Under the pieces are notes generated by a model, which was not told the DNA's origin, made no database searches, and saw only the letters and a list, made by a program, of their open reading frames with translations. This document shows, in pieces, positions 2,289-53,218 of a DNA stretch of 64,000 nt (positions within the stretch are counted from its first letter, which is position 1; the number at the start of each line of letters is the position of its first letter). The stretch spans positions 600,979 to 664,978 of the forward strand of contig QPGO01000008.1 of assembly GCA_008632985.1 (NCBI GenBank), written 5' to 3'. The stretch is from Psammoneis japonica. Its lineage: Eukaryota. Both the position numbers and the translations under genes were made by a program.

Positions 2289-2321
<33 letters not shown>

Positions 2322-9649: not shown

Positions 9650-10023
9650 TCATGGTCCAAAAAGCCAGGCAAGGGGCTCCTCCTTGTTTCCACCCCACGG
9701 AGGAATGACCCCACGACACATCATGATTGTCCTCTCAAGCATCAGCACATGATCACAGTGACTTGGGGAGGCTTGGCAAGGAAGATGAGGAGAGTTGGAA
9801 GGGAAAATTTGAACACCATGTACACAACAGGGTTCCAGGAAGTCTCTGTTGCAAGGATCAAGGCCCAACGAAAACTGAAGGGGAACGAATCAGAATCAAT
9901 CTCCAAATCATCGTCAAGCATTTTGGTTGGTCTGACAGTTGCACGTGCAGAGCTCGAAAGCCACCGCACGCAAGAGAAGCGGACAGAACTGGAACGAATG
10001 AAGCGAAGCAGCGGCATATCCAT
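9650..10023 (-). pseudogene. Candidate host gene head (mitochondrial-presequence-like) decaying into block A
   Basis: MDMPLLRFIRSSSVRFSCVRWLSSSAR lies head-to-head with the UCH gene. CpG-rich at the 5' end and progressively TA/CG-poor downstream. Confidence 0.3.
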
Positions 10024-11823: not shown

Positions 11824-13561
11824 TTATGTGCATCCCTCTTCGTTGGGAGTCTTGAAGTCACGCATGTGAATCCTGTAGGTGGAGAAGAATGAAAAAGATT
11901 GTAAGAGAAGGATTATCACCGAGACGTCTTGAAAAAGGATTGGTACTTCATACTACTCACCATGCATTTGCGCCATACTGGACGTGGAGAAGAATGAAAA
12001 AGATTGTAAGAGAAGGATATCACCGAGACGCCTTGAAAAAGGATTTGTACTTCATACTACTCACCTTGACGCCTTTAATTACCGGCTTCGCTTCTGCAAC
12101 GAGGCATGAAAAATGATGTAAACAATGAGAACAATCATCACGAGCTCTTGAAATAGGCCTTGCACCACAAACTTACCGTGAATTGTTCGACCGTCCTTTT
12201 TGTCCGGATCTTCATCGAGAACACTTGGCCAAATGACGGCTCTACCGCGCTTGGGGGTCACCGTCATGCCAAGCATGGGGAATTCAGTGCCACCGCCTTC
12301 CTCGACGTCATTCAAATCTAAAGTAGACAAGAAAGGGAAGCGAGTTAGCTTGCTATTGAGAAGTCTCGGCGGACACACCGATTCCATATTCCATACTTAC
12401 AAATATAAACGGTAAGTAGTCGAACTCCGCTTTGGCGATCGAGCTGGTGTGGAATGTAGTCACTGTGGGTATGGTAATACTGGTTTTCTTCGTACTTGAG
12501 CATTTGCAAGTACTCGGAGTTGAGTTCAGGGATACCTGTGAGGTTGGAGATCCTGTCCATGACATTCCTTGCCAATGGATCCTTGTAGCATTCGTTTTGA
12601 CACCACGAGTTCATTGAAGTACGCCCGTTGTTCACAAAGTTGTCGTAAGTTCCATCGAACTTGCGCTCTCCCACATCAGAACTCCTCTCGTATCCCTCCT
12701 CGGCACCCAACTCAATGAGCCTTTCGCACTCTTCCGGAGTAGCGAATTCCTCAAACATGACTGCCCATGGACCAATATGGTAATCATCCTCGGCCTCTTC
12801 TTGTCTCTCCACCTGACCAGCTGCTGACTCTTCGTCTTTATGGGGCGCGGCCCTTGGCGAAAGACAATTCTTGTCCGGTTCAGGTCGAGAGAGAATCTTT
12901 GGCTTGAACTGTTTGTACTCCTCGTTGGTGACGATACGTTCAAACATGCGGTTCAAATCGCCTGGCTTCCAAACGTTTTGTTCTCGAATGGCGTCCTTAT
13001 CCAATGGACAACGGCTCTCAAACATCAACTTGTCGCAAGACTGGCACGAAGGGGCACAGTTGACCACCATGTAAGCGGGGTTATTTGTACACTCCCCTAG
13101 CAAGGCCCAAAAGGCGCAGTCCTCGTGTTGGTTCTTGCAGTGAGTCTTGATTTCTGTGTACTTTGGCTCGGTATACACAACGTCCCTCATATAAGCCATT
13201 GACTTGTCAATCCACGCCTGTATCTCGTCAGCGCGTGCTCCAACGACATTCTGTGGAACTCCGAGATCAATCGCACTTTACAGTATTGTTGCATACGGGG
13301 GGCGTGCATGATGTGGGTGAGGAAAAAACGAAAACAGCAGGGGAGGTCGAAGCACTCAAAGTAAACTTACACCGAGTCCTCCTGTTTGACGCTTCGAACT
13401 TCTTGTCCTAAACTTGGAGCGGCTTGCTGTAGAAGACATTCTCCATCGCTGTTAGTCTGACATTCTCCGTCGCTTTTGCTGCTGTTCAATCCGAGAACGA
13501 CACTCGCAAGAACAACGGAAATTGCAACAATGAAGTTACGGGGCTTTATGGATGAAAACAT
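11824..13561 (-). CDS. Secreted/ER ShKT-domain prolyl 4-hydroxylase (P4H paralogue 1), 6 exons
   Basis: Signal peptide MFSSIKPRNFIVAISVVLASVVLG; ShKT CKNQHEDCAFWA..ECTNNPAYMVVNCAPSCQSC; 2OG-Fe(II) motifs RTS, HSDY, YLNDVEEGGGT, H-E, KYGANAW; C-terminus IHMRDFKTPNEEGCT*. Introns include 11873-11960, 11978-12064 and 12094-12176. Confidence 0.9.
11873..12064 (-). repeat. Two near-identical adjacent introns (88 and 87 nt) flanking a 17-nt exon
   Basis: 11873-11960 and 11978-12064 differ by 4 substitutions and 1 indel. Both are GTGAGT...CAG on the minus strand. Exon 11961-11977 encodes YGANA(W). Confidence 0.9.
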
Positions 13562-17219: not shown

Positions 17220-17405
17220 GCCTACTGTACAGTACCGATACCTACTGTACTGGTATGGCTAGCTAGCTCTCTCTCTAGGCCCTAGTTAACTGGATTAGGC
17301 ACCTGGATTGAGCCACTCTGAAGACAGAAAAGAATTTTCTAGAGTAGTTCTCTGTAGAGATAAACTTAGAGAAAGACAGCTCCAGACCTACACGCTGTTC
17401 CTAGT
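17220..17405. promoter_or_regulatory. Intergenic CTAG/CTAC/TAGA-rich tract (TpA-dense)
   Basis: ctactgtacagtaccgatacctactgtac...gctagctagctctctctctaggccctag, upstream of the 2-PGK-like gene. Function is inferred only. Confidence 0.45.
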
Positions 17406-17893: not shown

Positions 17894-20800
17894 GCGGGCT
17901 AAGTTCCTTGCGTCAAAATACGTGGAAAGGTTTGTTGTCGGCGTCACGGGCTGCGGCGCGGCATCGTGCTCCGCGCTGCGCGTGGGCACGAACGTCGCCC
18001 CAGTAGAATACGATCACTCTCTACTCTAGCTAGCTGCCACTCTAGAGAGTAGCTGTAGCAGCTAAACCCCATCGCCGTACTAAAACCAACATGGTCTCAC
18101 TGCGAGTTGGTCTAGGACAAGAAGATGATGTTCCGCACTGCTGCAATTGCGCTGGTCGCCGTGACCTCCCGCTTGCTCACAGGGCCAGAGCAGGGCCACT
18201 GTCTTCGTCACAGTGGGTGGACACAAGAAGGACAAGTGAACCCGAAATGCAAACCTGCCAAAGTGCAGAAACATGCCCATCAACCTGAGCCTGCTGCTGT
18301 CGACAGCAACATGGAGCGGCACATTTCAAATGTGTGTGGTGGTGTTTGTTTGAGATTCACCTGCCACATCCACACACCACACACCATCATGTGATCTTCC
18401 TTTTGTGCAAGAACACACTCTGTTGCTTGGCTTCTTTTTGCAGCGGGGCTCACCACCTTGCTTGGCTTGGCAATGTGACCCCTTGATGCACTGTTTTTGC
18501 AGCGTGCTGAGTGCAGTGGCAGGTGATCTGTGACAAGGAGCACACATGCTTTGAGAGAGAATCCAGAAGAGGAGCTGCTGCAAATTGTGCTGGAGTGAGC
18601 CAGTGCACTCCCAAGCACATCTGAGCTTGCGGGGGGAAGACCAAGAGACAAAAGAGCAGAGAGAGAGAGCAGCTGAGCAGAGCCACCTGTCTTTCTGCCA
18701 AGCACAAAAGCAGTTGTGCAGATTTTGAGGATGAGTTTCACATGTCTCACAGAACAGCTGAAGCATCTTTCTTTGCTTGTTCTGACATGAGCACCTGCTG
18801 GGGGGGGGGGCTGTGGCAATGACAAACAAGGTCAGTCAGCTGCCAACAGAAAAGCCCCCCCCCCAGCAAATCAGAAGAAGAGCAAGAACAAAGGGCAGAG
18901 TGGGTGCTTGACCCACTTGAAGCCCAGCTCAAAATTGATGCTGTGTGTTTCTTGCCCATGCCCCACCCCTTGCTCTTCTTTTTCTTCTTCTTCTTTGCTG
19001 TGAAGCACAGATCATCTGCTTGCTGTGAAGCAAAGATCATCCTCTGCACCTCAGCCAGAACCAGTTGGAGAAACTGAGGGCATCATTGTGGGATGAGCAG
19101 CAGCAGGAGTTGTTTGGAACAACATGTGCTGCATCTCAAAAGATTGGCCTGCTTGGTGTCTTGACATTTGCAAGTCTGATTTTTGGCAACAAAGATGGGC
19201 AATGGCAAGGTGTGACCTCTGCAAATTGATGCGCATGAAGAGAGTGTCAGCAGGCAGCAAAATGTCACATTTTCTTTGTGCTGCCACCATGCCAGCATCT
19301 CAACCAGCTAACTGCCAAGCCCTGTGTCAGCTGCAAATGTGCGCAGAAGCTTTGGTGTCATGTCAAATGCTTTTCCTTGGCCTTTGCTTCCCCCTTGATT
19401 TTGAAAGCAGGTTTCATGACATCCTTGTGATGTTGTGAATTGTGCATTCTTCAAAAACAAGCTTGGAGTGAGCAGCAAACTGCAGGGCTGTAGAAGCCTT
19501 TGCTTCTCAGCTCCCAGACTCAAAGGCACCAAAACTCAAAAGCATCAAATTTGTTAAAAACAAACTGTGCCTGTCTCAGCAGCAGCAGCAACAACAACAG
19601 CAACAATGACAACAGAACGCACCCAACCTTGCTCCCAACTGAATGCACTGCATTTTGTAAAAGCTGAGACAACTTTGACAAAATGGGAGGACAGCACTTT
19701 GTGCAGAGCACATGAATGAAAGTTGCACAGATCTTGAAAGCAGCAATTTGCTGGTCCTCTCAAAAGTTTTTGGAACAATGGATGCCTTGGCAAAAAAAAC
19801 TCAGCTTTGGCAAATGAAGGCTCTCAATTGTCTCACAGTCCTCAGGAGGATGTGTGCACAACAAAATGCACTGACTTCCCCACTTCACTTTTCAACTCCT
19901 GGGCTCAAAAGCACCAAGTTTCCTCAGAGCAATGATGTGCCCATTTGACAACAAGGCCATTGCCCTTTTGTTTCAGTCATTTGTCACACTGCTTGCTCTT
20001 TCACAAGCATGGCATGCTGCCATGTGCTGCAGAAGTTTTTGAAAGAGTCAGAGAAAGAAAGATTTTTGGGTGTGTGCACATTTGAAGTGTTTGCTGTCAA
20101 TTTTTTGTGCCATGCCTTTCAGCACAGAATCTTGATCCAAGCATCAACTTTCACATGGCTGTGCAACAAAACAAAAAAAAGCTGAATTTTTCCCCTCAGT
20201 GGAGCTGTGCAACTTGATCTGTGGTGCTTTCATGTGCAAAGCCCAAATCCTGATCTTTGTCAAGTGCCTGCACGGGCTGACTTGTGCCAAGCTGAGCTGA
20301 AGCTCCAGAGAAAATGTGGGGAGTCAAGTCAAAAGTCAGCTGACACTGGTGCTGCTAAAGTTGCAAAGCTGTTGCTGGCTTTGGTCCCTTGGTGCAGCTG
20401 CAGTGCCAAACATGCCCCACAAAAAGTTGGCCAACCTTCATGGCAAGCTCAATGCCATGGGGAGAACAACACCTGCCTGTTTTGGTGTTTTTGCAAAAAA
20501 TTGGCTCAAAGAGCATGTTGCTGTGAAAGTGCTCCTCTCTCAAGCATTTGTGGCTCCAACAGGGGTCAAAGTCCAGCCAATTCTCCTGACAATTTCAAGG
20601 TGAGTGTGGTCCACATGGGGTGCAAGACTTGCAACTTTGGAGACAGGCAACACAATGTTGTCCTGCCAACACCTGAGCAAATGCATGGCAACAAGAGCGC
20701 AAGACCCGCCCACCATTTTTGTGGGGCTCTGTTGCCCATTTGACCTCTTTGATGCTTTGAGCAGGTGGGGCTGCAAGCAACCCACAATGCTCATTGTGAG

Positions 20801-21122
20801 CCACACTCTTCCATTTTCAGATTCAACACCTGCACCTTTGCAGCCAAAACAAGCCAGGGAGGAGGAGCTCCACTCACTCAAATTTGTGGGGTCAGTGGTC
20901 AGCAGCTTCTGGCCACTTTCTTCTTGAACCATGCACCAAGAATCTTTGGATGAACTTTGGCTTGCATTTTTGTTTCTTGCTTGCTCTGAGCCAACTCTCT
21001 CCAACTGGAAAATGCAGAATGCAGAACCACTGCAGTTGACACTTCCTTGAAGAAATTCTGTGTGAAATGTTGCCATTTGTTGCCATTCAGGAGAAAACAG
21101 TTGGACAAGTTTCAATGGAGCC

Positions 21123-21283
21123 TGACAGACATCCGAGATGGGGAGTGCACTCCCTTGTGTCGGACAGACTGGCATGGACAGCATGGAGAGATCCGATGAT
21201 CTCTCCTTTGCTTGCTTTCTTTCTCATTGAGTGCACGATTGTCATCTGTCCTGGATGTCCGTTAGATTGTCCCGACACCGCCA
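21123..21283 (+). repeat. 5' LTR
   Basis: TGACAGACATCCGAG...CCGCCA; aligns without gaps to 28027-28187 with 15 mismatches. Confidence 0.95.
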
Positions 21284-21493
21284 GTCCGTGAGGTTGTGAG
21301 CAGCAGTGCGCTGTTCCTCTTCCTCTGTGCTCCTCCACCGCAACGCCTGTTGTGTGACTTGGCGACCTTTTCTTCATTGAAATCGTCATCATTGTCACAG
21401 CTGTTTTTTCACCTCTCAATTTGTGATCAAACGACCACCGCAGAACACACACCAGACCTCTGCGCAGGAATTTGATTTTTTTCCCGTGCAACC

Positions 21494-23595
21494 ATGGTGA
21501 ACAAAAATCAAAACACCGTCGATTTGACCAAGATCAAGACAACACGGGTTGAATTCAGCCCACATGATTGCTTGCCCGATGCCCACATTTTCCTGAACAC
21601 CTTCCATTCGGACGCAATCCCTGCTCCTGAAGATCTTTTAGATGGATTTGCTCCTCAAGGCCTCAAGCACGATGCTGTTGCTGTTCTCCATCATGAGATT
21701 GTTCAGAATCTCATCATCCCTGAAGCTGCCCTGACCAAAGATCTCACATGAATCAGGCCGATCATTGAAAAGGCCCCTCTCTTTGTGGCCACCCCTCAAG
21801 GCTCCCCGGTTCATCTGAACCTCAGCACTCTTCAGAACGCTGTGGTCGAAGCGATCACAGAGAATCACAGCACCACAAAGGCACATGTTGGCACTTTACG
21901 TTTCCATTTCAGTCCTGGTTTCTCCGGCATTGTGATTGCTGGGATGACATTTCAGATGATCCGCATCCAGTCCCACCGGCCACTTCAAGTTCTACATCCC
22001 CATCGGTTGCTGCTGCAGGTCCTGCTCTTGAAGACTTTGCCAAGGCCTCAGCTGCTCATTTGCCTGGTCCAAAACAGTTTGAGCAAGCTGTGACAAATGC
22101 GTTGAAGAACTCCACTCCCAAGGTGTCATCTCCTGCACCATCTGCCATGGCTGCCACTGGCACAGCTTCTTCATTGACTGCTGCCAGTGCCTTGCACACC
22201 TTCAATCTGAAAGGACTTCCAAAGGATGTGCTGGCCTGCTGTCAACGCAAAGAAGCCGGGAAAGCAGTGCTCGGAAAATCACTGGCACCTTGCAAGTCTG
22301 GAAACCTTTGTCACGAGGATGGTGCTGAGCGTCTGATCCTCACCGATGGTTCTCTCTTTGTTCATTGCACTGACTGGGATGCGAAGTCTTTCCTTCGTGA
22401 CCCTCTCACTTGTGACAATGTCTCTCCTCAAGGAATTCGTGCGTGGTGCACCACTGCAACCCAACAAGCCTCGGCTTGTGGCATGTGCATGCACCCTCTG
22501 TGGTGTTTCATCAAGGATGGTGGAAACTGGGGTTTCACATGTGGCAATGATCCAACCGATGATCTCCCTCTCCAGATGACTGTGCCACTGGACCAAATGA
22601 AACTGACCATCTTCCAGCACATTCAGAAAGTTGGAATTTTTTCCGGCAGAGTCCAAGCACCCTGACATTGTTCGTCAATGCTGTGGTGATGGATGTGCTG
22701 CTGTCAAGATGATTCTCTTTGACATCCCGCCGATTTGGACGAAGCGTCCACATGAGTTGATCAAGAGCCACCCGCACCAAAACAATCTTGTGGTCCTTGG
22801 CTGCCATGCTCTCTTCAGAGACCACCTCCAGCTGCGAGCTGTCATCTCCAACGTTGATGCTTCTCTTGACAACCCTGGTGAGCTGGGTGTTTTTCTCAGC
22901 AATGCTCGCCATGGCGAGCACCTTCACCACAAAAAACCGCAGATGCCCGGGAAGACAAGAATCAACAACACAAGTTCACACAGAAGAAGATTGTTGAAAC
23001 TGTCAGTGCGATTCTCAAGGAACCGGATGGCCCTGCTCTTCGTGTCAAGGACCCTCCCAAATGTCCTCTACGTCGTCTTCACACTTCGCCTGCTCCTTCT
23101 CTTGCAGCTCCCGTCTGAGGTCTTGACTTGCTTCCCAAAGATGAAGTCTCTCCTCCGCCTCCAGCGATTGAGGAGCCTCCCAAGGAACCTGAACCTCCTG
23201 CTGCGGAAGAACCTGTGGAAACCATGGAGCATTTTGTGAATGAACTTGCTGCTGTGGATGTCCCCACAGATGATGATGCACAGGCCCTCCATGGTGTCTG
23301 CAAGGCCTGCATCCACAGGATCAAGTCCTCTCCTGCCATTGCACAGAACCGTCCGTGTGCAGTTTGTGGTGACAACCACTTGTTCCATGAGTGTCCTGTG
23401 TTGAATGATGCTGAGTGCCTGCGCACTCATCTCATTTGGTTCTCCCAGTTCCTCCAACATGATCAGCATGCTCGTGATGCACTCAAGTCTGACACAGCCA
23501 AGAAGGATTTTTCCTGGGGCCATTGTCATGTTCCGACAAACAATGCCGCCCATCCTCCTCCAATCCAAAAATTCCTGCAAGCAGGGCAACTGTGA
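21494..23595 (+). pseudogene. gag-like region of the Copia element (interrupted)
   Basis: Successive broken ORFs after the 5' LTR; zinc knuckle RPCAVCGDNHLFHECPVL near 23350. Confidence 0.7.
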
Positions 23596-23838
23596 AAGAG
23601 GGTCCAACCGACTCGTCACCTTCCGCTGATGTTCCTCTTTCACCTGTGTCATTTGCCAACCATCTTTTGGGCTCGACGAAGGCTGGCACTCCAGATCCCA
23701 AGACGATTCCTGATGATGACCCTGGCAATCACAATCAGGGGAGGGAACCAGACCTTTCTACACTGGATGCTGATGTCCCATTGTCCACTGATCAAGACCA
23801 AGAATTTGAGCATCTTGACATGACCAACACCCCTGCAT

Positions 23839-26800
23839 TTGTCGCCCCTCAGTGCTGCACGCATCTCCCCAATTTTTTCTCCCCTGGAGTCACCTGCGAC
23901 CTTTGCATTCTTGACTGCTCCAGTCATCCCCATCAATCATGTGCTTCATGATTCAACGACATGTCGTGCTCAGATTGATGCTGGCGCTTGGGTGTCCTGC
24001 ACAGGGGACAAGAACCTCCTCCATGCCTGTGCTCCTTTTGGACTGGACAACCCTTGTCCTTTGAAGATTCTTCCTGCTGCTGAAGGCTCTGATGTGGTCC
24101 CTCATGGCTTTGGTTGTCCACAGGTGCCTGCAGACAATCCTGAAGGTTTTCTTCTTGTGTGCACTTTTTACCATCCCAGCCTGCATTCCACTTTGATTGA
24201 CAAACGTGATTTTGCACGGGCTTCTGGTTTCAAACCTCAGTCCATTCGATCCGAGGTCGGTGCTTGCACTCACACTGCTTCCGCTGATGCTCAAGAGGCA
24301 GTTGTCCATGGCATGCTTCGACATGGCAAGGTCTTCACACAACCCCTGGTTCCTCCGTCTGCATCTCATGTCCCTTCAACATCAACGACCCCTGACTTGT
24401 CCTTGGTTGATGATGTTGATGATGTTGATGATGCATGCCAATGCGCAGTCTTTTTTGTCAATGTCCAACAAAGTCCATCCGATCCCTTGCTGATGGATGC
24501 TGAGCTGTTTTTGATGCAGTGTGACTCGGCTCCCCATGTCTCACCTCCGTTGTCTGCCCCTGCTCCAGTCCGCTCTCTCAAGGTTGAGACTGAACATCTT
24601 CTGTGGCATCAATGCCTTGGACATCCCAGCGATCACTGCTTGTACAATGCTCACAAGTGCATCAAGGGCGTCCCGAAGTTCCAACATGCCAATCCTGTCC
24701 TTGACATGTGTCCTGCGTGTGTCCAAGCCAAGCAAGTCAAGACTCCTGCTGGACCAAACACAACCCAAAAGGTGACCCAGCCATGCCAAGGCCTTGCTGT
24801 GGATTTTGCTTTCGCTGGCCAGGCTTCCAAGAATGAAGACTGCAAGGTTGATCATCTTGGACACAGTGGTGAAACGTGTTGGATCGCTGTCTACGATCAT
24901 CACACACGGATGCTCCATGGAGTGGCAAGGGTTTCCAAAGCCAGTCCTCTCAAGTGGCTTTGCCGATTCTTGGATGGACATTCACCAAATTGTCGTGACA
25001 AATGTGCACTCATGGACCAAGGTGGAGAATTGTGCAAAAATCCCAAAGTTCGTGACCTCTTTGAACGAGAATTCCAGCATGACATCTGTCCTTCTGGCGC
25101 TGGTGCATCCAACCAATGTGGACCTGTTGAACGCTCACATTCAACTGTTGAAAATGCGATTCGTGCAATTTTAATTGGTGCCAACCTTCCGATTCGATTC
25201 TGGCCCTGTGCTTTTTACCATCACCTCTGCATCAAGAATGCTGCTCCTGCAAAAGATCAAGATGCGGCACCCATCACTCTTGCCACCGGAAAGGTTGAAG
25301 ATTTTACTGCTCTGAAGACTTTCAGATGTCAAGTGTGGTCCAAACGGTCCACTGCTCGTTCTGCTGCTTTCCGGACCAATTCCAAGAAGGGTGCATTCCT
25401 TGGCTGCCTTCCAAACACCCTGAAGAATGTTGTGTGGTGGGATCCTGAGACTGATGAAGTCAAGACGGCCAAGCATGTGTGCTGCGATGAAGGTGTGAAT
25501 GATCTGTTTTTGGATCAACTTCCTCCCAATGCCATCCATTTACAGTGTGTGGAAAATGGTCAGCCTTTTCCAGCTGAAACACAGGACACCACCGTTCCTC
25601 TGTTTGCCTCTTCGTCGAATCCTTTTGCTGCAACTGTTGCATGTGCCATGAAACGTCCCCCAAAGGATCCCACCTGTGGTTTTGGATTTTCCCAGTGTGT
25701 GCTGATGGACCGTGTCTGTGCATCACAAATCAAGCAGTGCAGTCATGCAGCATCTTTGTTCTCTTCTCTCCGTGCTGCTCACAACAAGATTGTGGGTGCA
25801 TGCATTGTCTCTGTCAACAAGCATGAAGCATTTGCTCCAAAGGATGCTGAAGAGGCTTTGTCTCAGGTCTTCCATGATGAAATCCCGACCTTCGAGATTG
25901 CTTTTGCGCCGGAACAATGATTGGATTCTCGCACCCTTGATGAGGCATTTGAGGAAGCGGAGTTGTTTGAACCTGATTCCTTGGAGGATGACTCCCATGT
26001 TCCTGAACTCACTTTGGAGGATGTGTGATCTGTCACGGCCCTTCTCTGTCCTGATGATGATTTTTCAGATGAGGCCATCCCTGCTGATGTGTTCCATGCC
26101 CACCTCAATGCGATTTGCTCCCGCTCTCTCACTCCGGAGGAAGCTGCTCTTGACTGCCTCACCCGTGCCAAGCTTCGTAAACTTGACACATGGCCTGAAT
26201 GGGAAGAAGGCGAGCAGCGTCAATTGGATCAATTTTGTGCCCTTGGTGTGTGTGGTCCTCCTCAACCACGTCCCCCTGGCGTGAACGTCATGCGTCCGCA
26301 TTGGGATCACATGGTGAAGCCGGATGGACAACGTCATTCTCGGCAATGTGGTGATGGTTCCAAGTCGGAAATGCCGGCCTTGCACAAGTTGACTTCCACC
26401 TGTTTGTCATGTGTGGAACGCTCCATCAAAAAGATGTTTTTTGCTCTCAGTGCAGCTGTGTCACATTGTGTCTTCGGCGGTGATGCTCGGGATGCCTGCG
26501 CTCATTCTCCTGGTCCTTCACAGCCAGTTTTCGTTGCTGTTGATGATGCACACATGCTGCCTGGCATGAAAAGAGATTTGGCAAGAAAGCGCCCCGCCAT
26601 TGTGTTCTCCCACTCAAGCATGCTCTTCAAGGTCACCCTGAAGCTGGTGTCCTTTGGGAAAAGCACATCAACTCAATTCCAACGGGTGCAAAACTTCTTT
26701 TCTGCAACGCTGCTCATGACAAGTGCATCCATTCTGGTGAATGTGATGGTGTCAAGGTCCTTCCACTCCATCAGGTCGATGATTTTGCTCTTGCTTGTCC

Positions 26801-27884
26801 CTCCAAAAAGATTGCAAAAGAGATCTACAACCATGTTGGCAAGGCTCTCCAGATGGAGAATGAGGGCACTCCTCCGTTCAAGTGTTTGGGCTCAGTTGCT
26901 GAGTTCAACGGCATTGATGTCATCCAAAATGACGGCTCGATTGCTGTCAATGTTGCCAGCTGCCTTGATCATGTTTTCAAGACCCATGGTTGGGATGCTC
27001 CCACTGCAAATGAATCTGAGTCTGATTTCAAGGCTGCACCTGTGCCGGTTGATTGTGTCCCTGATCTGTGTGCCACTGAAGGTCCTGAAGAGGGCACTCC
27101 TGAGTGCAGTGCTCTTGCTGAGTCCCAGGGTTTCTCTTGCCGTTCTGTTCTGGGTGAATTGGTCTTCACCTGCTCCTGTTGTCGTTTGGACATTGGTCAT
27201 CCCATTGTTGCCTTGTCCAAGTTTTCCAAGGCCCCGGCTGAGCTTCGTTGTGATTCACTCAAGCGCATGGCCAAGTGTTTGCGGTGCACCAAACATTGGG
27301 GGCTGACGTGTGAGAAGTCCAAGCGCGATCCCGGTCTGCCTCCTTGCAATTTCGAGTGGCTTGAGGATGACCCATCTCTCCCGGACTTCCCTTGTGCTGA
27401 TGACCTTTTCCAACTTCTTGGTTTCATTGACACAGCACATGCCAGTGAACCATGGCATCGCCGCTCTGCTGCTGGATGTGCGCATGTCCTTGCTGGTGCT
27501 GCAATTGACTGTTGTTGCCATGCACAGATGATTGCCACCACCAGTTCCACGGAAGCTGAGTTTCTCGCGGCTGTTGCTGGTGCGAAACAGACCCTGTGCC
27601 TCCGCATGGTTCTGGAAGAATTGGGCTTTCCTCAACGTGATCCTGCTCCCTTGCACATTGATGGCTCCTCCGCCATCCAGATGTTCAATGACAAGGTGCC
27701 TGCGGAGCGATCCTGCCATGTTGACATTCAACATTTTGCTGTCCAAGACTGGTGTGACACAGGCAAGATTGTCACTCAACATGTCCCGGGTGTCATTGAC
27801 CCTGCTGATGTGCTGACCAAGGCTGTGGGTTGGACGATGCTTCGTTCCCGCCATGCCCGCCATTTGATGGGACATTGCCATTGA
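23839..27884 (+). pseudogene. Copia pol (protease, integrase, RT, RNase H) with frameshifts, stops and hypermutation
   Basis: QIDAGA (protease), LWHQCLGH, CPAC, VDFAF, DQGGEL, GPVERSH, FWPCAF, FLGC, RPHW, GGDARDACAHSP, ALQGHPEAG, HQVDDFALA, GFIDTAHA, SSTEAEFLAAV, HVDIQHFAVQDW, DPADVLTK. Confidence 0.93.
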
Positions 27885-28026
27885 CTGTCATCAGGTTTTG
27901 TTGTGGATTGAGTCTTGGGTGTGTCTCTTTTTTCTTTGTTTTGTTCTTTGCCATTCTGGTCCTCTCTTTTCATTCGGATCGTCCATTTTTTTCTTGTTGA
28001 GCATTGCATTGCTTGTCAGGGGAGGA

Positions 28027-28187
28027 TGACAGACATCCGAGATGGGGAGTGCACTCCCTTGTGTCGGACAGACTAGCACAGACAGCATGGAGAGATCCGA
28101 TGATCTCTCCTTTGCTCACTTTCTTTCTCATCTAGCACACGATTGTCATCTGTCCTGGACATCCATCAGATTGTCCCAACACCACCA
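28027..28187 (+). repeat. 3' LTR
   Basis: Preceded by the PPT and followed by TSD GAGCC. Confidence 0.95.
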
Positions 28188-30844
28188 GAGCCAAGCCACC
28201 ATGCTCTCCACAGCAAAAAATCTTGGAGCTGCATCCTTTGCTTGCACAATGATGGGCTCAAGCCCATCACAAGCACGGCACAGAGTTGCAGCACATGCCA
28301 TTGCATGTGGCAAAAGCATGTCTTGGCAAGCTCTTCTCTCTAGAATGAGGGCGGTCTCTTGAGTGGATGACCTTGTGGCCCAGTCTTGAGCAGGGTGTGG
28401 CACAGACAAAACATTCCAAAGTCTGCCAAGGGAGAAAGGTCCAAAGCAAACAGAGTTTTGCACAAGTTTGCCACTGCTGGGAGCTGACTTTCATTTGCTC
28501 CTCATGGTCACACCCAGGCAGGAGGTTCGAGGGAATCCAGTGCACCTGGCACACCACTTCAAAGTGTTGCTGAAAGGTTGGCACCCAAAGCAGGCAGTTC
28601 ACAGCACACACATCATTTTTTGTGACATCATGACTCGCTGTTTTGTCCAGCCTCTGTCACCATTGAGTGGAGTGCAAACAAGTCAGCACCATCAGCATGG
28701 CCCGCTTCCATTTGAGCTTCTTTTTGCAAAAGAAAAAGTGGAGGATGCTGCTGAGAAAAGTGGTGCACCATTTGGCCATTCTTTTGTTTCCTTGCCAACT
28801 CATGCTTTGTGTTGCAGCAGTTGCAGTGGCCACTTTTGCCAAGACTGCCACAGACTGGCTCAAATTGTTTTTTGTCACTCATCTGGAAGAGATCCTGGGC
28901 ACCACATTTTTGCCGTGGGTGCTGCAGCTCTGTCATGAAAGTTGTTTTGTAGATCCATGTCAACACCCTGGTTTTGTTGGAGCCAGCAACATGCCAACAC
29001 ACCTTCCTTTTGATGTTCTCATCACAGTTTTTTTGGGTCAATCACCATGTTGGGTCTGTCAACAGCATGAAGTGGACCACACAGACAGCATGACTGAGCC
29101 TCTCCATCATGTCAAAATGCCCTCCATTGCCACATGCAGCCACCACATGATTTTTTCAAGCACAGCCAAAAACATCAACTGCAACAGCATCAAAGCAAGT
29201 GTTGCAAGCAAGCCACAAGCTGTGGCAACAGAGATGATGCTGCAGCCAGCAGGCAGTGAGCTTTTCCAGCCCAGCAGCAAAGAGCGAAGCTTGCAACATG
29301 TGCAGGTGCCAGAAGGAGCTTTTGTGGTGAAGTTGTTGGACTTGGACATGGCAAAGATCTTTGGCTGCTTCTGCCTGCCCTTGCTGCCATCTTCTGTGAC
29401 ACACCCTTGGCATCCTGTTGTGATGGCAGCAGGTTCACATGCCTGTCACAAATTCCAACATTCTGCACTCCTTGTGGGCTTCCCCCTGCTGTCATGTTGC
29501 TGTGGCCACATTTCCACATTTTGTGGAACCAAGCTCAGCTCTCATGTCTTTCAGACAGCAGCTCTTGTCAGGATCAAGACTCAGACACTCAAAGCTTGGA
29601 TTGGACTGCTGCTGTCAGAAGCTGAGCGCTGGCCTCAATGGCAGAATCTGTGGGGTTCTTGCAGTGAAGCCATTCATGGATGCACTGCAGAGCAACCAGG
29701 AAATCAGCACCACACAATGATGCAGAAGCCAAGGTCAAGGCAATGTGCTCATGAGCAGACAATTGTTTGGCTCACACTTGCTGGAATCTTCACTTGACAA
29801 ACACCTCACCTGTGCATCACACACGGTGAGAAATTGGCTGCAAATCTGTGGCAAAAACAACACTCAAAAGTTGAGCATTCAGGGAGCCAAAGGTTCACTG
29901 CTGGAGGCAAACAAGCCATTGAGTGAAGAGGGTGCATCCACCTGCCCCCTCAAACCACAAAGTCACCCATCTCATTGACCAGCAGCATTTGGGTGAAATG
30001 TGCTCCAGTGCTTGCATTTGCAGGCAGAGCCTGTCATGCAAAACTGTGCTTCCCACATGCAGCCACTCCTGTCCCATGGTGGCACCTTCACCACACTTCA
30101 CCTGGTCACAAAGTGCCCACACTCTGACAACCTTCTGCCTTGCATGATGGCTCCCGCCCAGGAAAATGGCCACATCCTTCAGCCCCCCACTGTCTGGAGC
30201 TCTTCAAGCTTTGCTGGTGCTGCAGGTGGACCTGTGTGAATCCAACCAAATCCATGCAGAGCAGAGGAGTTGTCAGAGCTGTGTGCTGTGTTTGAAGTGT
30301 GGCACCAGCTGCTGCAGAGCAGGCAAAGTGATGCAATGACTCTTGGTCACTTGACCAGCTCAGTGTCTGGCCATCACTGACCAGGCTGCTGTCGCTGGCC
30401 GGAACCCAAGTTGCCTCTTGCCACTTGAGTTGAACTTCCCTCATTTGACCTCTCTCACTGCATCAAGAGAGGTGGCAAAAAAGAGACTTTTGTCATTTTG
30501 CAACAACAAAAGTGGACAGCTAAAAGGAGACCTCTGTGGTTCTAGCTGTTGCTGTCACCGTGGTGGAGTGGTCTGGAGTTAAGAGCTCCGTGAATGACAG
30601 ACCTGTGCCACCAAATCTACATGGAGTGGAGTTATCACCTCGTTCTGTTCGAAGCGGCGTACAGCAAAAAGGCAAGTACTTCTACACTGCACTGCAGGCC
30701 CTCTCTGTGTAGCTTCATTGCTTCCGGACAATAAAAACGGAAAGAAACATCGTGATGTGATCTATTACTACTGTGGAGTGCCCTAATCTCTACTCAGCTA
30801 CCGGCAAACTAGGTTCCTTAATCTGGTGAACAATGCAGTCACCT

Positions 30845-32547
30845 TTATGAACAGCCATTATCGTGAGGTGTGATGTAGTCCCTCTGGTGCAACTGCCCGA
30901 TTGTGAGAACAACGAAAGAAAGTCCTGTTAGACACATCGAACAACGAGTGAATCATCGTCAGGCGATTGCATGGTATACTCACCCATGAATTTACACCAT
31001 ATTTCACACCCTTGATGACTGGCTTTGCTTCTGAACGAGGCATGAAAATGATTCGAACGATTAGAATAATCATGAGCTCTTCAAATAGGCATTGCATCAT
31101 AGTCTTACCATGCTCGGTGCGTTCATCGATGGCGTTGGGATCGTCGTTCAATACACTAGGCCACAACAGCGCTCTTCCACGTTTAGGTTGAACCGTCAAA
31201 TCGAGATCTGGGAAGCCTGTGCCTCCACCCTCCTCCACATCATTCAGATACAAATAAAGTGTCATCAGTCTGACCCCCTGCGGGCGGTCAACTTCAAAAT
31301 CGATATAATCGTGATGCTTGACATAGTGCTGCCCAGGCTCGTACCTTAAAAGTTGGAGGTGCTCAGAATTGTTTTTCGGGATCCCCGTCACGTCTTCAAT
31401 TCTCTGAATAACTGATTGAGCAACAGGATCCTCGGCACAAACGCCCTCGCACCACGCGTTGGTCGAGGTGCGACCTTCGTTAACGTCATCTTCAAATGTG
31501 CCATCAAAGCTCATTTCACCAACATCTGCGCTGCGTTCATATCCCTCCTTGGCACCCAGCTCAATGAGCCTTTCGCACTCTTTCTGCGAGGCAAAATTCT
31601 CTAAAATCACCACCCAAGGTCCAATTTGATAGTCAACGTTCGACGCCTTCGAGTCACCCTTGGCCAAATACGGACGAGACAACGCGTGAGGCTGATACTT
31701 CTCATACTTCGGAAAGGTAAGAATCTTTTCAAACATATGATCCACGTCGCCGCTTTCCCAGACGCCTTTATCGGTCCTATCCCACGGACATCTCTCTTCG
31801 TGCAGTAGCTTTTCGCAAATCTGACACGCTGGTCCACAATTCATAATCATGAATTCGTACTCTTTTTCTTCCTCATCGCAGGCTCCATCGAGGGCCCACA
31901 AACTAAAGTCGCCCAAGAAAAATCTTCTGATGAGCCAATTCTTGTCGGAACAAGGTATCGGCACACTTGGTTCAACTCACCTGCAGTCCTCTTCGAAATT
32001 TTTACAATGAAACCTCACTTTTTCGTATTTGGGCTCGATCATTACCACATTTGTCATGTATTCAACCGCCTTATTCACCATGTCCTTGACCTCATCCGAA
32101 CGAGTCCCTGCGTCGTTTGTGGGACGCCAACACTTATGGGCTCGCTGAAGTAACGAGGAGAATCCAGGGATGCAATGAGAGACAAAAACACTTATCGTGC
32201 ACGATGATACATCGGTACAAAATGAACTACACACATCATTCCTGAGCCTACCAGTATTACTTACTCGCACATCTTACAAGCCTTCCGGCAGTATTCCTCC
32301 ATAAAAGAAGGGTTCTCTTTACATTCACTAGGCTTGAGATTCGCCCAAAACTCACACTCTTCGTCCTCGTTTACACATGGGTATTCCGAGATCACTCCAC
32401 CTCGATGAGATTGTATTCATCGACGTCATCTATGCACGTGCCATCAGCAGAGCAGTTTTCGTCAAGCTCTTCGCCAAACAAGAGACTCGGTATCAGTATT
32501 AGTACACTTAAGATAGAAGCGTAACGAAAGGCCGAGACAAACATCAT
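30845..32547 (-). CDS. ShKT-domain prolyl 4-hydroxylase (P4H paralogue 2); two apparent -1 frameshifts near the 5' end (pseudogene or consensus error)
   Basis: Signal peptide MMFVSAFRYASILSVLILIPSLLFG; two ShKT domains; GRTS, HHDY, LYLNDVEEGGGT, KYGVNSW, LHQRDYITPHDNGCS*. Frame breaks near 32415 and 32117. Confidence 0.8.
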
Positions 32548-32811: not shown

Positions 32812-34589
32812 TTATTGACAATTATTTTCACTCGGGGTTTTGAAGTCCTTCTGGTGCAACTGTTTCATGAAAAGCGGGCAAAGCGTGAGACATATGGCCT
32901 GCAAGAGACCTTTTTTACAAATCTAGTAGAGAAGTCGTAAACTCACCCACTGGGCAGTGATACGAAAGTTTAATTTGTGAGTGACTGAGTGAGTGACTGA
33001 GTGAGAAACTGAGTGAGTGACTTACAGCATTTGCACCAAATTTCACGCCCTTTTCGACAGGTAAAGCGGCGTGGTAAGTCCGACCGTCTTTACGATTCGG
33101 GTGGCTGTCCAACACGCTAGGCCACAACAGAGCTCTTCCACGTTTTGGTGTAACTGTGAGTTTCAGATTCGTAAACTGCGTTGCTCCTCCTGCTTCAACA
33201 TCGTTCAAGTACAAAAACACCGTAATGGTTCTGACCCCACTCTGCCGGTTGACCTGGTATGGTATGTAGTCATGATGCATCTGGTAGAACTCGTTTACCT
33301 TTATTGCCGTCGTTCGGCGGGCAATGGTTACGGATAAGAAAGACTGCATTTCTAACACTTCCACCAACCAGAGCCAGACTCACCTCATATTTCAACAACT
33401 GAAGATATTCAGAGTTACGTTCCTCGATACCAGTTAGATTAGCGATTTTCTCCATGACAGTCTTTGCAACGGGGTCTTCGTAACATGTGTGTTGACACCA
33501 GGCATTCTTGGAGGTGCGGCCATCATTGACATTGCTTTCAGTCGTCCCGTCAAATTTCATCTTGCCCACATCAGCACTTCGCTCGTATCCCTCTTCTGCA
33601 CCAAGCTCAATCAATTTGTCACATTGTTCTGGAGTAAGGAAATCATCAAGAACAACAACCCACGGCCCGTCTATCGGCGCGCTTTCGTCGTCAGCTTCGT
33701 TATTCGACTTGAATTTTAGCAAGCTTTTGATCCGATCGGTAATACCCTTCTTCTTCTTCTTCTCGTCAGTATTCTGTACTGGTTCCTTGCCTTTTGGTAC
33801 TTTACTCTTTGCAGGCTTGGATAGAATCTGTGGATTATACTTTTCGTATTCTTTGTCTGTCACAATCCGCATAAACATTTTGTTCACGTCACCTGGCTTC
33901 AACGCATCAGGTGGCAAATCATCCATCGGACATCTGGTCTCGTAGTCAATCAAATCACACGTCTGACAAGAGGGGGCGCACTGGAGCTGCATGAAGTTAG
34001 GGTTTTTCTCACACTCGCCGATAAGTGCCCAGAAAGAACAGTCGACGTGACGGTTCTTGCAATGCCGCATTACTCTCTTGTACTTTGAATTCACCATAAC
34101 CTCCGTTCGCATGTAGTCAATAGTTTTCTCCAGAATAGCTCGAATCTCGTAAGCACGCGGACCAGCGAGCTTCTGCTTTTCACCTAAATCAAACTCAAGG
34201 TCATCCTCAATACTAGGAAGCACAATCCTATCAGAAAAGTCACATCATGCAGCGTGTCAAAACTGAGAGAACGAAGCACGAAACATACTTTCACGGCTAA
34301 TTCTTCGGGCGACTTACATGTTCTCGCAAGCGTTGCACGATTTACGGCAATTGTGCAACATATAATTGGGATTGGCCTCGCACTCGCCTTTACGGGCCCA
34401 GAATTGACATTCCTGATGCTCATCCTCGCACGATACTGCTGCACCTTCGGCGTTGTTGTCCGTGCAAGTGCCGTCATCAGCCGAGCAAGTTTTCGCATCC
34501 ACCCCGCCACTTTCTACGACCGATACTGTGTCACTACTAGCAACCAGAATGAGATTCAGAAGGACGATTAATAGCGAGATTCTCTTCAT
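32812..34589 (-). CDS. ShKT-domain prolyl 4-hydroxylase (P4H paralogue 3) with a predicted 3-nt micro-exon
   Basis: MKRISLLIVLLNLILVASS; two ShKT domains; GRTS, HHDY, FLYLNDVEAGGAT, HAALPV, KFGANA|W|LHQKDFKTPSENNCQ*. Confidence 0.9.
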
Positions 34590-34819: not shown

Positions 34820-34925
34820 GACTACTCTCTCCAGCTCTCTCTCTCTAGCTAGAGAGTAGAAGTAGCTAGCTCTAGCTAGCTAGCTACAGTAGTAGCTAGT
34901 ACCTTTCACTCTACAGTACTGTACT
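34820..34925. promoter_or_regulatory. Intergenic CTAG-rich tract upstream of P4H paralogue 3
   Basis: ctctctagctagagagtagaagtagctagctctagctagctagctacagtagtagctagtacc. Confidence 0.45.
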
Positions 34926-34954: not shown

Positions 34955-36345
34955 CTATTGACAGTTGTTTTCGAGTGGTCCTTTGAAGTCCCTCAGATGA
35001 ATCTATATTTGCATTTTGTCAAGAAAGAAAGGTATTGTGAGTCACGTCAATCAAGAAGAAGCGACTACCATAGGATGCCCCTTCTTCTCACCCAAAAATT
35101 TGCTCCGTACTTAACACCTTTCGTAACTGTTAACGCGCTATGCGTCATTCTTACATCTTTCCTACTCGGATTCATATCTAGGACACTAGGCCAGATAACA
35201 ACACGCCCCATTCTTGGCTGAACCGTGATATCTAGCTTGGGAAAGTTAGTTCCGCCCCCACCCTCCACATTGTTTAGGTAGAGGAAGACGGTCAGCATGC
35301 GTACTCCAGGTTGGTGAGCCGCCTGGTAAGGGTTTAGGTCATGATGACTCTTATAGAACTCATTCTCTTGATAATTCAATAACTGTAAATATTCGGAGTT
35401 TTCTTGAGGAATCTGGGTCAGAGTTGCGATCTTGTCAGTAACTGTCTTTGTGACGGGATCATCAAAACACGAATCTATACACCATGCTGTAGTAGATGTC
35501 CTGTCTTTGCTGAAGGTTCTTGCAAAGGACCCGTCCGCATGTTGCTCACCAACATCCCAGCTACGTTCAAAACCAACTGTATGACCCAATTCAATCAGAC
35601 GTTCACATTCTTGCTGTGTAAGGAAGTCATCAAACGTTACAATCCAAGGACCATCCTTCTCCTCGGACGAATCCTCGTCTTGCTTTGGTCGCGACAAGAC
35701 CTGTGGATGAAACTCTTGATAGTCTTTCACGATGCGTTCAAACATACGGTTCAAATCCCCCGGTTCCCACGCATCGGGTGGCAGGACATCGTCTGTCATG
35801 GGGCAACGCTGTTCATAGGCAATTTGATCGCACGTCTGACAAGTCGGTGCACACTCTTTTTGCATGAACATGGGATAGTTATCGCAATGTCCATGAAGCG
35901 CCCACACAATACAATCCTCGTGAAGATTTTTGCAGTCTCGCTTGATTAAGTCGTACGATGAGTCCAAGCCGTTCATGTATTCCGCCGTCATGCCCATGAC
36001 TGCCTCCACGTCGCTTGCCAGTTCTGGGGGTTTTCGTTGCAACACACCGAACTCAAGGTCGCTATTATCTTGATCGCTGGGTTGGCAAATGTTGCAAGAC
36101 CTCGGACAGTGAATCCTCATGTATTCTGCATTAGTGTCGCATTCACTAGGCTGCAAGCCAGCCCAAAAGACGCAGTTGTCGTGCGTGTCTTTACACTCTG
36201 ATGAGGGCGGATCTTTTTCCTCTTGGCACTTTTCGTCCGTTCCATTGCCATCCGCAACACAGGTTTGCTCCTCCTGCGAAAGAACGCCGACAGCTATGAA
36301 CAAGCCGATGCATATCAACAATCTTATTTTGGTGGTCAACCACAT
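34955..36345 (-). CDS. ShKT-domain prolyl 4-hydroxylase (P4H paralogue 4), 2 exons
   Basis: MWLTTKIRLLICIGLFIAVGVLS; two ShKT domains; DRTS, HHDL, FLYLNNVEGGGGT, HSAL, KYGANFW; intron 35003-35091; IHLRDFKGPLENNCQ*. Confidence 0.9.
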
Positions 36346-51428: not shown

Positions 51429-53218
51429 CTAAAACTCTAACCACCAAAAACTGAGGGGTCGGAAGCGCACTTTCGGGAGCTCTTTTTCTCCGCACAAAAA
51501 ACACGCGTTTCGTCGACTCGACCATGATGATGCCTCATGGTTCTTCCCCATCGCCTTCCCAGGATGCCGATCCCACTTGCACCGTTGCCAATGACACTGA
51601 CACAACAGGTGATGTCATTGTTCTGGTTCTCGTGGGTGTGACACGTGCAAAATGAGATGCTGCAAACTCACACTGTTGTTTGCACGCTCCACCGCCTCCC
51701 ACAGATGCTGTCATGAATTCCAGCGCCGCACCTGCGTTTCGGGCCCCTGGCATGCCCGACACTGTTGCTCCTGCCCTTGCTGCCGCAGGTGCTGTTGACA
51801 CTGTCATTGCATTTTGCCAATGACGTCCACAATGAAGTGCTGGTGACTCACACTTCTTTCATTCTCACCCCACCGCCTCCCACAGATGCCATCACGAATT
51901 CCAATGCCGCACCTGCGTTTCGGCCCCCTGGCATGCCCGACACTGTCACTCCTGCCCTCGCTGCCGCAGGTGCTGTTGACACTGTCATTGTCTTTTGCCA
52001 ATGACATCCACAACAAAATGCTTGTAACTCACACTTCTTTCATTCTCGCCCCACCGCCTCCCACAGACACTGTCACGAATTCCAACGCCGCACCTGCGTT
52101 TCGGCCCCCTGGCATGCCCGACACTGTTGATCCCACCCTCACTGCTGCAGCCACTGTTGACACTGTTGTTGTTTTTGCTTTGGAAGGAAGACAATGGATG
52201 ACAGATGACGGCGGACCAGGAAACCCACGCAACCACGGCCTGCTGATGGACGACACATCAATGGACATGAATGGTGCCTCTTGGTTGGCTCTCGAGTGTG
52301 GTCCAGTCTTTAGAACACACAGACACATTGTGCAGCTCTCTGTAAATTAGAAACCTGACAACAATTAGATGGCAGGCATGCTTTCACAGTTTTTTAGTTT
52401 CAAGTTGGAGAGGTCAGCGAGTTGGCATTTGTTTGCAGGCGACTTGGCAAGGTTTCAAATGGTGCATGTGACTTGGACACTGCTCCATTTTCCAGGACTG
52501 GGTCATCATGTGCAGCTCCACAAGAGGCCACTCTCGCCATTTGAATTCTGCATGTGATGTGCAACATGCTGTTTTTGTGTGTTGCCAAAATGGAGGCAGG
52601 CAGCAACGTGCTTTTGGCAAATGCTCACCATGTTTGTCACTGTTAGACCTTCAAAACTGGTGCCTTGTCGACAGCCATGCTGCCACTTTGCATGCTGGCA
52701 CCTTCTCTGCCCGCACTCCATTGGCTGCGTCCTCCTTCACATGTTGCTGCAGTTCATCTTGACACTTGTTGTTGGCTCCGATTGGCTCCGCTGGGCTCTG
52801 GGTGAGTCTCAATCACCTCCAGACAGACAAGGTTCTGCTTGGAAACAATCATCCTGAGAAAGGTCATCGCCACACCTCCTGTCATAGATGCTCCTCTGCC
52901 ACGCCCACTGAACCTTGACGTCGGTTTGTTGCTTTTGTTTTTTGACCTGGTTTCGGAGCTGCACCCCAGACCGTTTGAGAGAAGGCTCATCAGCACCTTC
53001 CACAACACGGCGACACGAACGAGAATCCAGTTTCTCCGGGGACGCAATGACAGGAGCAGACCAATCACGGCGCTGTGTTTGTGTTTCAGGCACAGGATCC
53101 GGCGAAGAACGGGAGGTCGTCATGGTCGAGTCGACGAAACGCGTGTTTTTTGTGCGGAGAAAAAGAGCTCCCAAAAGTGCGCTTCCGACCCCTCGGTTTT
53201 TGGTGGTTAGAGTTTTAG
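51429..53218. mobile_element. Non-autonomous TIR element, 1790 bp, with 102-bp TIRs and a possible CCC TSD
   Basis: 51429-51530 is the reverse complement of 53117-53218 with 3 mismatches, all at CpG. Ends are CTAAAAC...GTTTTAG. CCC flanks both sides. No recognisable transposase. Confidence 0.85.
51666..52178. repeat. 181-bp tandem repeat, about 2.8 copies, inside the TIR element
   Basis: ACCGCCTCCCACAGA recurs at 51691, 51872 and 52053. Confidence 0.9.

Follow-up and report, generated by a model that had tools for sequence, protein, structure and literature searches.

Transposon-derived DNA of the diatom Psammoneis japonica loses its TA dinucleotides about 25-fold faster than its CG dinucleotides, and loss of CG is several-fold higher in those tracts of a copy that have already lost TA. 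The window, the whole stretch of 64,000 nt analyzed here (GCA_008632985.1, QPGO01000008.1:600,979-664,978, forward strand), contains two layers of such DNA, a Ty1/copia retrotransposon and the older host DNA into which it inserted. The pattern is probably best read as one silencing mark with two chemistries, a presumed editing enzyme and presumed methylation. The following features define the layers:

18114..21122, no strand assigned: older repeat-derived host DNA, left part (TA o/e 0.03, CG o/e 0.11)
21118..21122, + strand: left target-site duplication GAGCC, its joint seen on the empty-site contig
21123..28187, + strand: Ty1/copia retrotransposon with broken frames (TA o/e 0.04, CG o/e 0.46), missing on a second haplotype
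21123..21291, + strand: Copia 5' LTR, 169 bp, 89% match to 28027-28187
23824..25920, + strand: pol fragment carrying a GAG-pre-integrase and a retroviral SH3 domain (PF13976, E=1.7e-6; PF25597, E=3.5e-6)
26547..27884, + strand: pol fragment, copia-type reverse transcriptase (PF07727, E=0.002, under the curated cut-off)
28018..28026, + strand: polypurine tract, immediately 5' of the 3' LTR
28027..28187, + strand: Copia 3' LTR, truncated by 8 nt on the 3' side
28188..30520, no strand assigned: older host DNA, right part, opening with the second GAGCC (TA o/e 0.02, CG o/e 0.08)
51429..53218, no strand assigned: younger comparison layer, an element bounded by 102-nt terminal inverted repeats (survival of TA 0.10, of CG 0.81)

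Insertion of the Copia element into older repeat DNA, as an earlier note on this DNA had supposed, is proved by an empty-site allele. A contig of public run X1, possibly derived from the same sample that yielded the assembly, joins 21102 to 28191 and omits 7088 bases, and on this allele the right host runs on directly from the left. The LTR pair, the GAGCC on both sides, and the polypurine tract provide further proof. With an integrase region before the reverse transcriptase, paired LTRs, a polypurine tract, and a 5-bp target duplication the element has the features of Ty1/copia; the first pol fragment (23824..25920) shares 42% identity with a protein labelled Cylindrotheca fusiformis, and the pol region has 50 matches across the genome. 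The 5' LTR was placed at 21123-21291 because the LTRs of other copies extend 8 nt further and show the 5-bp duplication after the same LTR end. Differences between the two LTRs fall mainly at YpR sites, including four TG/CA double differences, and the single transversion in 161 bp is too thin a basis for dating. On the left the last TA of the unedited flank lies at 18113, with CG thinning by about 18500, and on the right TA is back from 30521. The left host has only short matches of 70-87% elsewhere in the genome, and the right host is single copy by genome search. Six-frame Pfam scans of the host DNA gave no credible family, phmmer with 28667-29794 gave one match, a low-complexity repeat protein, and a phage-collection search with one host gene gave no match. 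A motif-based guess that the host is a Pif1/Helitron helicase was not supported, since none of six PIF1 loci matched it.

The two layers differ in CG and not in TA. The counts that first drew attention, 14 CG and 1 TA in 24001-24600 of the Copia element and 1 CG and 2 TA in 19501-20100 of the host, are exact and typical of all tiles: each of the 11 Copia tiles of 600 bp holds 11-25 CG and 0-4 TA, and each of the seven host tiles 1-7 CG and 0-3 TA. Over whole segments the Copia interior has a TA o/e of 0.035 and a CG o/e of 0.458, compared with 0.030 and 0.108 for the left host, 0.021 and 0.081 for the right host, and 0.60 and 0.99-1.06 for gene DNA nearby. CG makes up 209 of 1650 YpR dinucleotides in Copia and 25 of 1235 in the host (Fisher p=9e-29), while TA shows no difference in share (17 vs. 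7, p=0.22).

Comparison among copies converts these levels into rates. Across 11 copies of the window family, 1124 YpR columns yield starting numbers of about 209 TA and about 212 CG, with survival of 0.05-0.12 for TA and 0.37-0.80 for CG. The window copy reads TG at 121, CA at 107, TA at 13, and CG at 5 of 246 TA-type columns, and CG at 137, TG at 60, and CA at 59 of 256 CG-type columns. A younger family, caught mid-process, loses TA 25-fold faster than CG, the ratio ranging from 38-fold in RTAY to 3-fold in TTAA. Among 18 young copies, the edited tracts retain 83 of 521 TA sites (RTAY 13/206, TTAA 15/19) and 762 of 820 CG sites; 438 TA were thus lost against 58 CG. Three copies of family F1 at 0.0 transversions per 1000 (L129, L139, and L144) keep 182/182, 109/182, and 47/182 TA, and 253/253, 239/250, and 246/253 CG, respectively. 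CG loss runs 200-300 times as fast as transversion and TA loss 25 times as fast as CG loss, all relative rather than per-generation measures. The proposal that TA loss is faster and saturates early is borne out, as CG loss continues afterward: duplicated insertions have a common TA pattern, yet show 62 and 70 differences at CG sites. The duplicates L035 and L036 differ at 7 TG/CA and 62 CG sites, and the independent insertions L035 and L040 at 132 TG/CA sites; TG/CA outcomes are independent between independent copies. Among 17 copies CG o/e is lower the longer the terminal branch in transversions (rho -0.62, p=0.008), although L047, L049, and L043 retain a CG o/e of 0.58-0.59 despite long branches. 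Transversion distances date insertions only roughly, because those between independent copies include changes in the transposing lineage. L031 and L050, with a common 3' flank and odd internal differences, were excluded from rates, and L036 was used only beyond alignment column 1000, as its columns up to there are non-homologous. In old duplicated pairs the hazard of residual TA is 0.19-0.21 against 0.16-0.23 for CG, a ratio below the 3-fold of TTAA in young tracts, and the editor may therefore slow with age.

The earlier note had called the two processes separable, which is true of their rate and sequence context only; the losses are not independent. CG was lost at 58 of 820 sites in TA-edited and 28 of 2814 in unedited tracts, about 7-fold more in the edited than in the other tracts of a given copy (p=3.5e-6, copy and position effects removed), while transversions are equal (9/15105 vs. 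26/51236). TA o/e and CG o/e co-vary in rank (rho 0.59, 17 copies), so that the tracking of one depletion by the other, which the note had named as contrary to its idea, is found in part. Among three copies from other families, chosen for a spared 3' quarter, the coupling was repeated in L078 (0/37 vs. 17/147, p=0.026) and L114 (1/57 vs. 21/164, p=0.018) and was not significant in L090 (1/54 vs. 12/175, p=0.31). Edited tracts start directly after the 5' LTR, and editing declines in the 3' direction, a gradient missing or weak in L112, L115, L063, and L089. L128 and L129 adjoin TA-free DNA yet are unedited, showing no immediate spreading from edited neighbors.

Within edited tracts the change is highly specific for adenine in TA (hazard 1.84 vs. 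0.008 for TG/CA) and affects both strands alike, with 274 TA>TG and 244 TA>CA. The order of contexts is TAC/TAT > TAG > TAA, with TTAA slowest; with a 5'-T, TA changes most slowly (0.30), and CG is lost about as fast as in any context (0.086, against 0.043 with a 5'-C). Neighbors at 1-300 bp show no strand coordination (concordance 0.49-0.52, equal to the null), which rules out processive single-strand bursts. CG loss probably reflects deamination of 5mC. Its rate per C in duplicated insertions is 34-39 times that of other transitions, above the 10-15-fold excess of mammalian 5mC, and the loss may therefore be enzyme-assisted. The genome encodes 27 matches to the C5-methyltransferase family PF00145, none identified as DNMT5, and nine to the deaminase family PF00383, none tied to TA loss. 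In Phaeodactylum, DNMT5a maintains CG methylation on transposable elements, according to the accessible text (PMC9998398).

The strongest rival is a single machine for both changes, either methylation-linked editing or an error-prone repair complex with strong TpA and weak CpG activity, making the two losses inseparable. It would account for the confinement of CG loss to TA-edited tracts, for a CG rate that is high for spontaneous deamination, and for the slight rise of off-target A>G in the same tracts (13/1976 vs. 10/7314, p=2e-4), and it has a precedent in fungal Dim2, a methyltransferase described in the accessible text as promoting C>T in repeats at mitosis (PMC8016269). It is nevertheless unlikely: the context preferences of TA and CG differ, neighboring TA and CG events within 15 bp are uncoordinated in strand or outcome (277/543 vs. 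null 0.503), CG loss goes on once TA is spent, and the hypermutable viral region of Bigelowiella shows A>G/T>C in 210 of its 211 mutations.

Loss of TA on RNA or during reverse transcription, before insertion and by an ADAR- or APOBEC-like activity, is very improbable. The polarity does follow the element's direction of transcription. The equal numbers on the two strands refute it, barring uncoordinated editing of both strands in cDNA; moreover, the two LTRs of the window Copia differ at such sites, the terminal-inverted-repeat element is also edited, and strand runs are absent. Slightly less probable still is that Copia was TA-poor and CG-rich from the outset. Unedited Copia copies have a TA o/e of 0.71-0.84 and a CG o/e of 0.83-1.06, and these values, the equal TA and CG starts, and the independent TG/CA outcomes refute it for Copia. 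Correction for ancestral composition, which the note had asked for, thus leaves the difference standing. The refutation is limited to Copia, as the host's original CG is unmeasurable because no close relative was found; of 28 listed differences between the host haplotypes, 8 fall at CG-type or TG/CA sites. Least credible is the note's own alternative, that A>G at CpA regenerates CG and keeps Copia CG high: gain from TG/CA occurs, is about 5-fold up in edited tracts, improves model fit (a gain inflated by the star tree), and may set the host's low CG floor (CG/(TG+CA)=0.021), but at 13/1976 gained against 58/820 lost it amounts to some 9% of the loss per site, is fitted at g=0.01-0.04 against CG loss of 0.23-1.02, and as the main cause is already refuted by column counts, with 239 of 419 columns holding both TG and CA containing no CG in 11 copies and the window copy reading CG at only those 5 of its TA-type columns.

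Under the preferred reading of one mark and two chemistries, a transposon copy is unedited at first after insertion. A marked zone then arises directly behind the 5' LTR and reaches toward the 3' end, a pattern consistent with spreading. Within the zone every TpA becomes TpG or CpA independently of the others, on either strand, until resistant sites remain, and CpG there decays to TpG or CpA about 25 times more slowly, with its own context preference, persisting long after TA is exhausted. The zone may be silenced chromatin with CG methylation, CG loss being mutation of 5mC and TA loss the work of a putative DNA editor that is dedicated to adenine-to-guanine changes and drawn to this chromatin as well. 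The window would represent two time points, with Copia done with TA loss and half of its CG gone, and the host at the floor for both. New here are the measured TA:CG rate ratio, the coupling of both losses in space, and the front on the 5' side, which point to a DNA-rewriting defense that follows gene silencing. A compositional oddity thereby becomes a measurable pathway, and partly edited copies offer a ready substrate for an enzyme search and a sharp prediction, that 5mC and silencing marks end where TA editing ends. In this genome the pair would serve as a two-speed transposon-age clock, TA for the youngest copies and CG for older ones, and transition-based LTR dating would badly overestimate ages. 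To our knowledge, TpA-specific A>G editing of double-stranded DNA is not an established natural activity. A Bigelowiella preprint goes no further than proposing such an editor (10.64898/2026.01.13.699255).

The CG component resembles the CpG decay of methylated transposons, with CG>TG/CA on both strands, in repeats only, and rising with age; CG>TG and CG>CA are equal in the window copy (60 and 59). The word "deamination" appears nowhere in the text of the Phaeodactylum DNMT5 paper (PMC9998398), and a literature search, thin on subscription journals, turned up no publication in which diatom transposons lose TpA. Dim2 of Zymoseptoria promotes C>T and, in the accessible text, acts at CpA (PMC8016269), unlike diatom CG loss. 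RIP of ascomycetes and the diatom process are alike in targeting repeats with dinucleotide-specific transitions after insertion, wrecking transposon coding sequence, but RIP is C>T and creates TpA, whereas the diatom changes are mainly A:T>G:C and remove it. RIP changes occur as same-strand runs, of which the concordance at 1-300 bp gives no sign in the diatom. Some F1 elements are unedited despite being multicopy and near-identical, so duplication alone is probably insufficient as a trigger.

In Bigelowiella natans integrated viral DNA undergoes TpA hypermutation at about 1000-fold over baseline per generation, for which an ADAT2-like adenine deaminase is proposed and unproven (Mettrop et al., bioRxiv 10.64898/2026.01.13.699255). 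As far as the available portion of that preprint goes, the two systems have in common TpA>TpG/CpA on both strands, specificity for TpA over other adenines, TpA-depleted clusters that include transposon-like genes, and confinement to foreign or putatively silent DNA with genes spared (diatom TA o/e 0.02-0.04 vs. 0.60 in genes). Bigelowiella is a rhizarian, studied there through single-copy viral inserts and mutation-accumulation lines, with TpA only mildly depleted in hypermutable regions, whereas the diatom has multicopy transposons driven to a TA o/e of 0.02-0.1. In that portion of the preprint nothing corresponds to the diatom's slower CpG loss within TA-edited tracts, its ranking of sequence contexts, or its front anchored at the 5' end. 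Almost no C>T is reported in Bigelowiella (1/211 changes not A>G/T>C), against 58/820 CG lost in the diatom; methylation may differ here rather than the editor. A broader and more tentative proposal is that diatoms possess a dedicated A>G DNA editor, recruited by one silencing mark in common with CG methylation, nucleating behind the 5' LTR and spreading with the silent domain, so that TpA edits would record the spread of heterochromatin permanently in the genome; with Bigelowiella included, it might represent a RIP-like defense of opposite chemistry common to distant SAR lineages.

Transposons of Psammoneis japonica lose TA and CG dinucleotides after insertion, on DNA and on both strands, with two rates and two contexts in one zone, and with CG loss outlasting TA loss. 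In the window, drawn from a 91 Mb genome, gene DNA has an observed/expected ratio (o/e) of 0.60 for TA and about 1.0 for CG, and TA o/e is about 0.03-0.13 in four islands. The features concerned are, in forward-strand window coordinates:

21123-28187, Ty1/copia element (the Copia) with LTRs and a polypurine tract, flanked by a GAGCC target-site duplication
18114-21122 and 28188-30520, older repeat DNA around it (the host)
51429-53218, element with 102-nt terminal inverted repeats (TIR element)
600-9900 and 63250-64000, more old islands (TA o/e 0.04 and 0, CG o/e 0.12)
17240-17290, 18000-18090, 34857-34903 and 54506-54552, short TA-dense, CTAG/TAGC-rich intergenic motifs, one at the left boundary of the TA-free domain
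11824-11874, 30845-30895, 32812-32862 and 34955-35005, related 51-nt stretches, located at the 3' ends of genes in a small ShK/2OG-Fe(II) oxygenase (prolyl-hydroxylase-like) family

Diatoms make up almost all the named best matches of the window's valyl-tRNA synthetase, at 71-77% identity (one match carries the label Alexandrium), and a fragment of the Copia pol matches a protein labelled Cylindrotheca fusiformis. The 600-bp tile counts of the earlier note (about 14 CG and 1 TA in the Copia, 1 CG and 2 TA in the host) were exact on recount and typical of their segments. A contig from X1, a public sequencing run that may be of the same sample as the assembly, joins position 21102 directly to 28191; a second haplotype therefore lacks the Copia, and the host segments on either side of it form a single sequence. 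Compared with the host, three contigs of the empty-site haplotype show 26 differences in about 1426 bases, of which 7 are transversions. If the empty allele is ancestral, about 2.5 (1-5) transversions per 1000 sites sufficed for the Copia to be stripped of about 95% of TA and 41-50% of CG, a rough bound since the three contigs are a biased sample. The family's LTR terminus (21284-21291; 3' ends of family loci L032-L049) reads ...AA or ...GA instead of the usual CA, and its last 8 nt hold adjacent CG and TA sites with every decay stage represented among copies. Within another edited Copia, L043, lies an unedited element of 398 bp, bounded by short terminal inverted repeats (L043:2756-3153; TA o/e 0.87, CG 1.54); two 97% relatives in TA-poor surroundings retain 27-28 TA. 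It may be a third, youngest layer or belong to a class escaping editing.

For comparison, 20 of 50 genomic matches to the Copia pol region were retrieved. Transitions turn TA, TG, CA and CG into one another and no two of these dinucleotides can overlap, which allows a direct count over aligned columns. Both TG and CA occur in 419 of 1124 YpR columns (11 copies); CG is found in none of the 11 copies in 239 of these, with a second mode of CG in 5-9 copies. From fitted starts of about 209 TA and 212 CG, survival is 0.05-0.12 for TA and 0.37-0.80 for CG (0.05 and 0.51 in the window Copia). In a set of 17 copies, from which two duplicate and two partial ones had been dropped, CG o/e is lower the greater the terminal transversion length (rho -0.62, p=0.008), the trend for TA is less clear (rho -0.40, p=0.11), and the two ratios co-vary (0.59, p=0.013).

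The order of losses is visible in L035/L036 and L038/L039, whose common flanks mark duplicated or allelic insertions. L035/L036 differ at 7 TG/CA sites, versus 132 in the independent pair L035/L040, whereas CG sites number 62 differing and 182 shared (70 and 133 in L038/L039). Thus TA loss was near complete before each split and much CG loss followed it. Per lineage, the rate of CG loss is 34-39 times that of other transitions per C and 200-300 times that of transversions. The TA that remains disappears about as quickly as CG.

Younger copies give the rates. The best 30 of 150 RVT_2 loci have TA o/e of 0.10-0.84 and CG o/e of 0.73-1.24. In F1, a younger, partly edited Copia family (29 loci against one real, nearly unedited reference copy), copies at 0.0 transversions/1000 retain from 182/182 down to 47/182 TA and 96-100% of CG, so TA loss is switched on and does not run as a clock from insertion. 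Edited tracts, where local TA has mostly become TG/CA, retain 83/521 TA, 13/206 RTAY, 15/19 TTAA and 762/820 CG across 18 young loci (excluding L151, the same insertion as L153, and L142, which has edits in common with L145). Hazard ratios against CG are 25, 38 and 3 for TA, RTAY and TTAA, so the earlier claim that TA loss outpaces CG decay was right. Thirteen TIR-element copies, including that of the window, retain 0.08-0.24 of TA and 0.75-0.96 of CG.

That note had also called the processes separable; their rates and contexts are indeed distinct, but independence fails, as CG loss shares a zone with TA editing. CG loss is 58/820 where at least 70% of local TA is edited versus 28/2814 where less than 10% is (43/766 and 13/2674 minus 14 recurrent columns). 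The coupling persists once copy and 1-kb position are included as terms (p=3.5e-6) and was repeated in two of three hand-picked copies from other families; transversions do not differ between edited and unedited tracts. Editing is densest about 0.45-2.1 kb from the 5' end (15 F1 copies extended to that end), and in L138, L141, L143 and L144 a nearly unaltered 5' LTR precedes an edited interior. In F1 the 3'-ward fade is seen in both genomic orientations; of 13 copies belonging to four other families, several but not all show it. One copy missing its first 1.56 kb (L129) is unedited in TA-free surroundings.

Over distances of 1-300 bp, the outcome at one site does not correlate with that at its neighbour, whether the pair is TA-TA, TA-CG or CG-CG, so changes accumulate singly over many rounds of replication. 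The A>G strand shows a 3' base preference of C,T > G > A. Seen from the pyrimidine side, a 5'-T makes the slowest context for TA (88/296) and a fast one for CG (93/1081 versus 38/882 for 5'-C). Gain of CG from TG/CA is higher in edited tracts (13/1976 versus 10/7314); per site it comes to about 9% of the loss of CG. Outside YpR context, the element sense strand of L141 carries 11 A>G changes and 1 T>C, which may stem from a distinct event at the RNA or RT stage. Stops in edited RT matches (RVT_2 search) are nearly all TGA; stop codons are created by CG decay and never by TA editing, so a gene finder can mistake an edited copy for an intact one.

The zone is probably silent, CG-methylated chromatin; CG loss would then be mutation of 5mC, and TA loss the work of an adenine editor recruited there. 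The main rival, a single complex performing both changes, appears unlikely. The C5-methyltransferase and deaminase genes present in the genome are permissive only. Among 27 PF00145 matches, C5-methyltransferase matches cluster at G000:C297 and C10:610995-617549; several of these have in-frame stops, and a portion of them may have decayed or be carried by repeats.

Parts of this picture have counterparts elsewhere. In Bigelowiella natans, Mettrop et al. (bioRxiv 10.64898/2026.01.13.699255) report that TpA in viral inserts changes to TpG or CpA at a rate of about 6e-7 per site per generation. Hoguin et al. (PMC9998398) link DNMT5a to transposon CG methylation in Phaeodactylum, and Moller et al. 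(PMC8016269) show C>T promoted by a methyltransferase in fungal repeats. Literature searches, in a library with few subscription journals, turned up no publication on loss of TpA from the transposons of diatoms. The TA and CG loss in P. japonica transposons is real, and a related kind of process has been described only recently.
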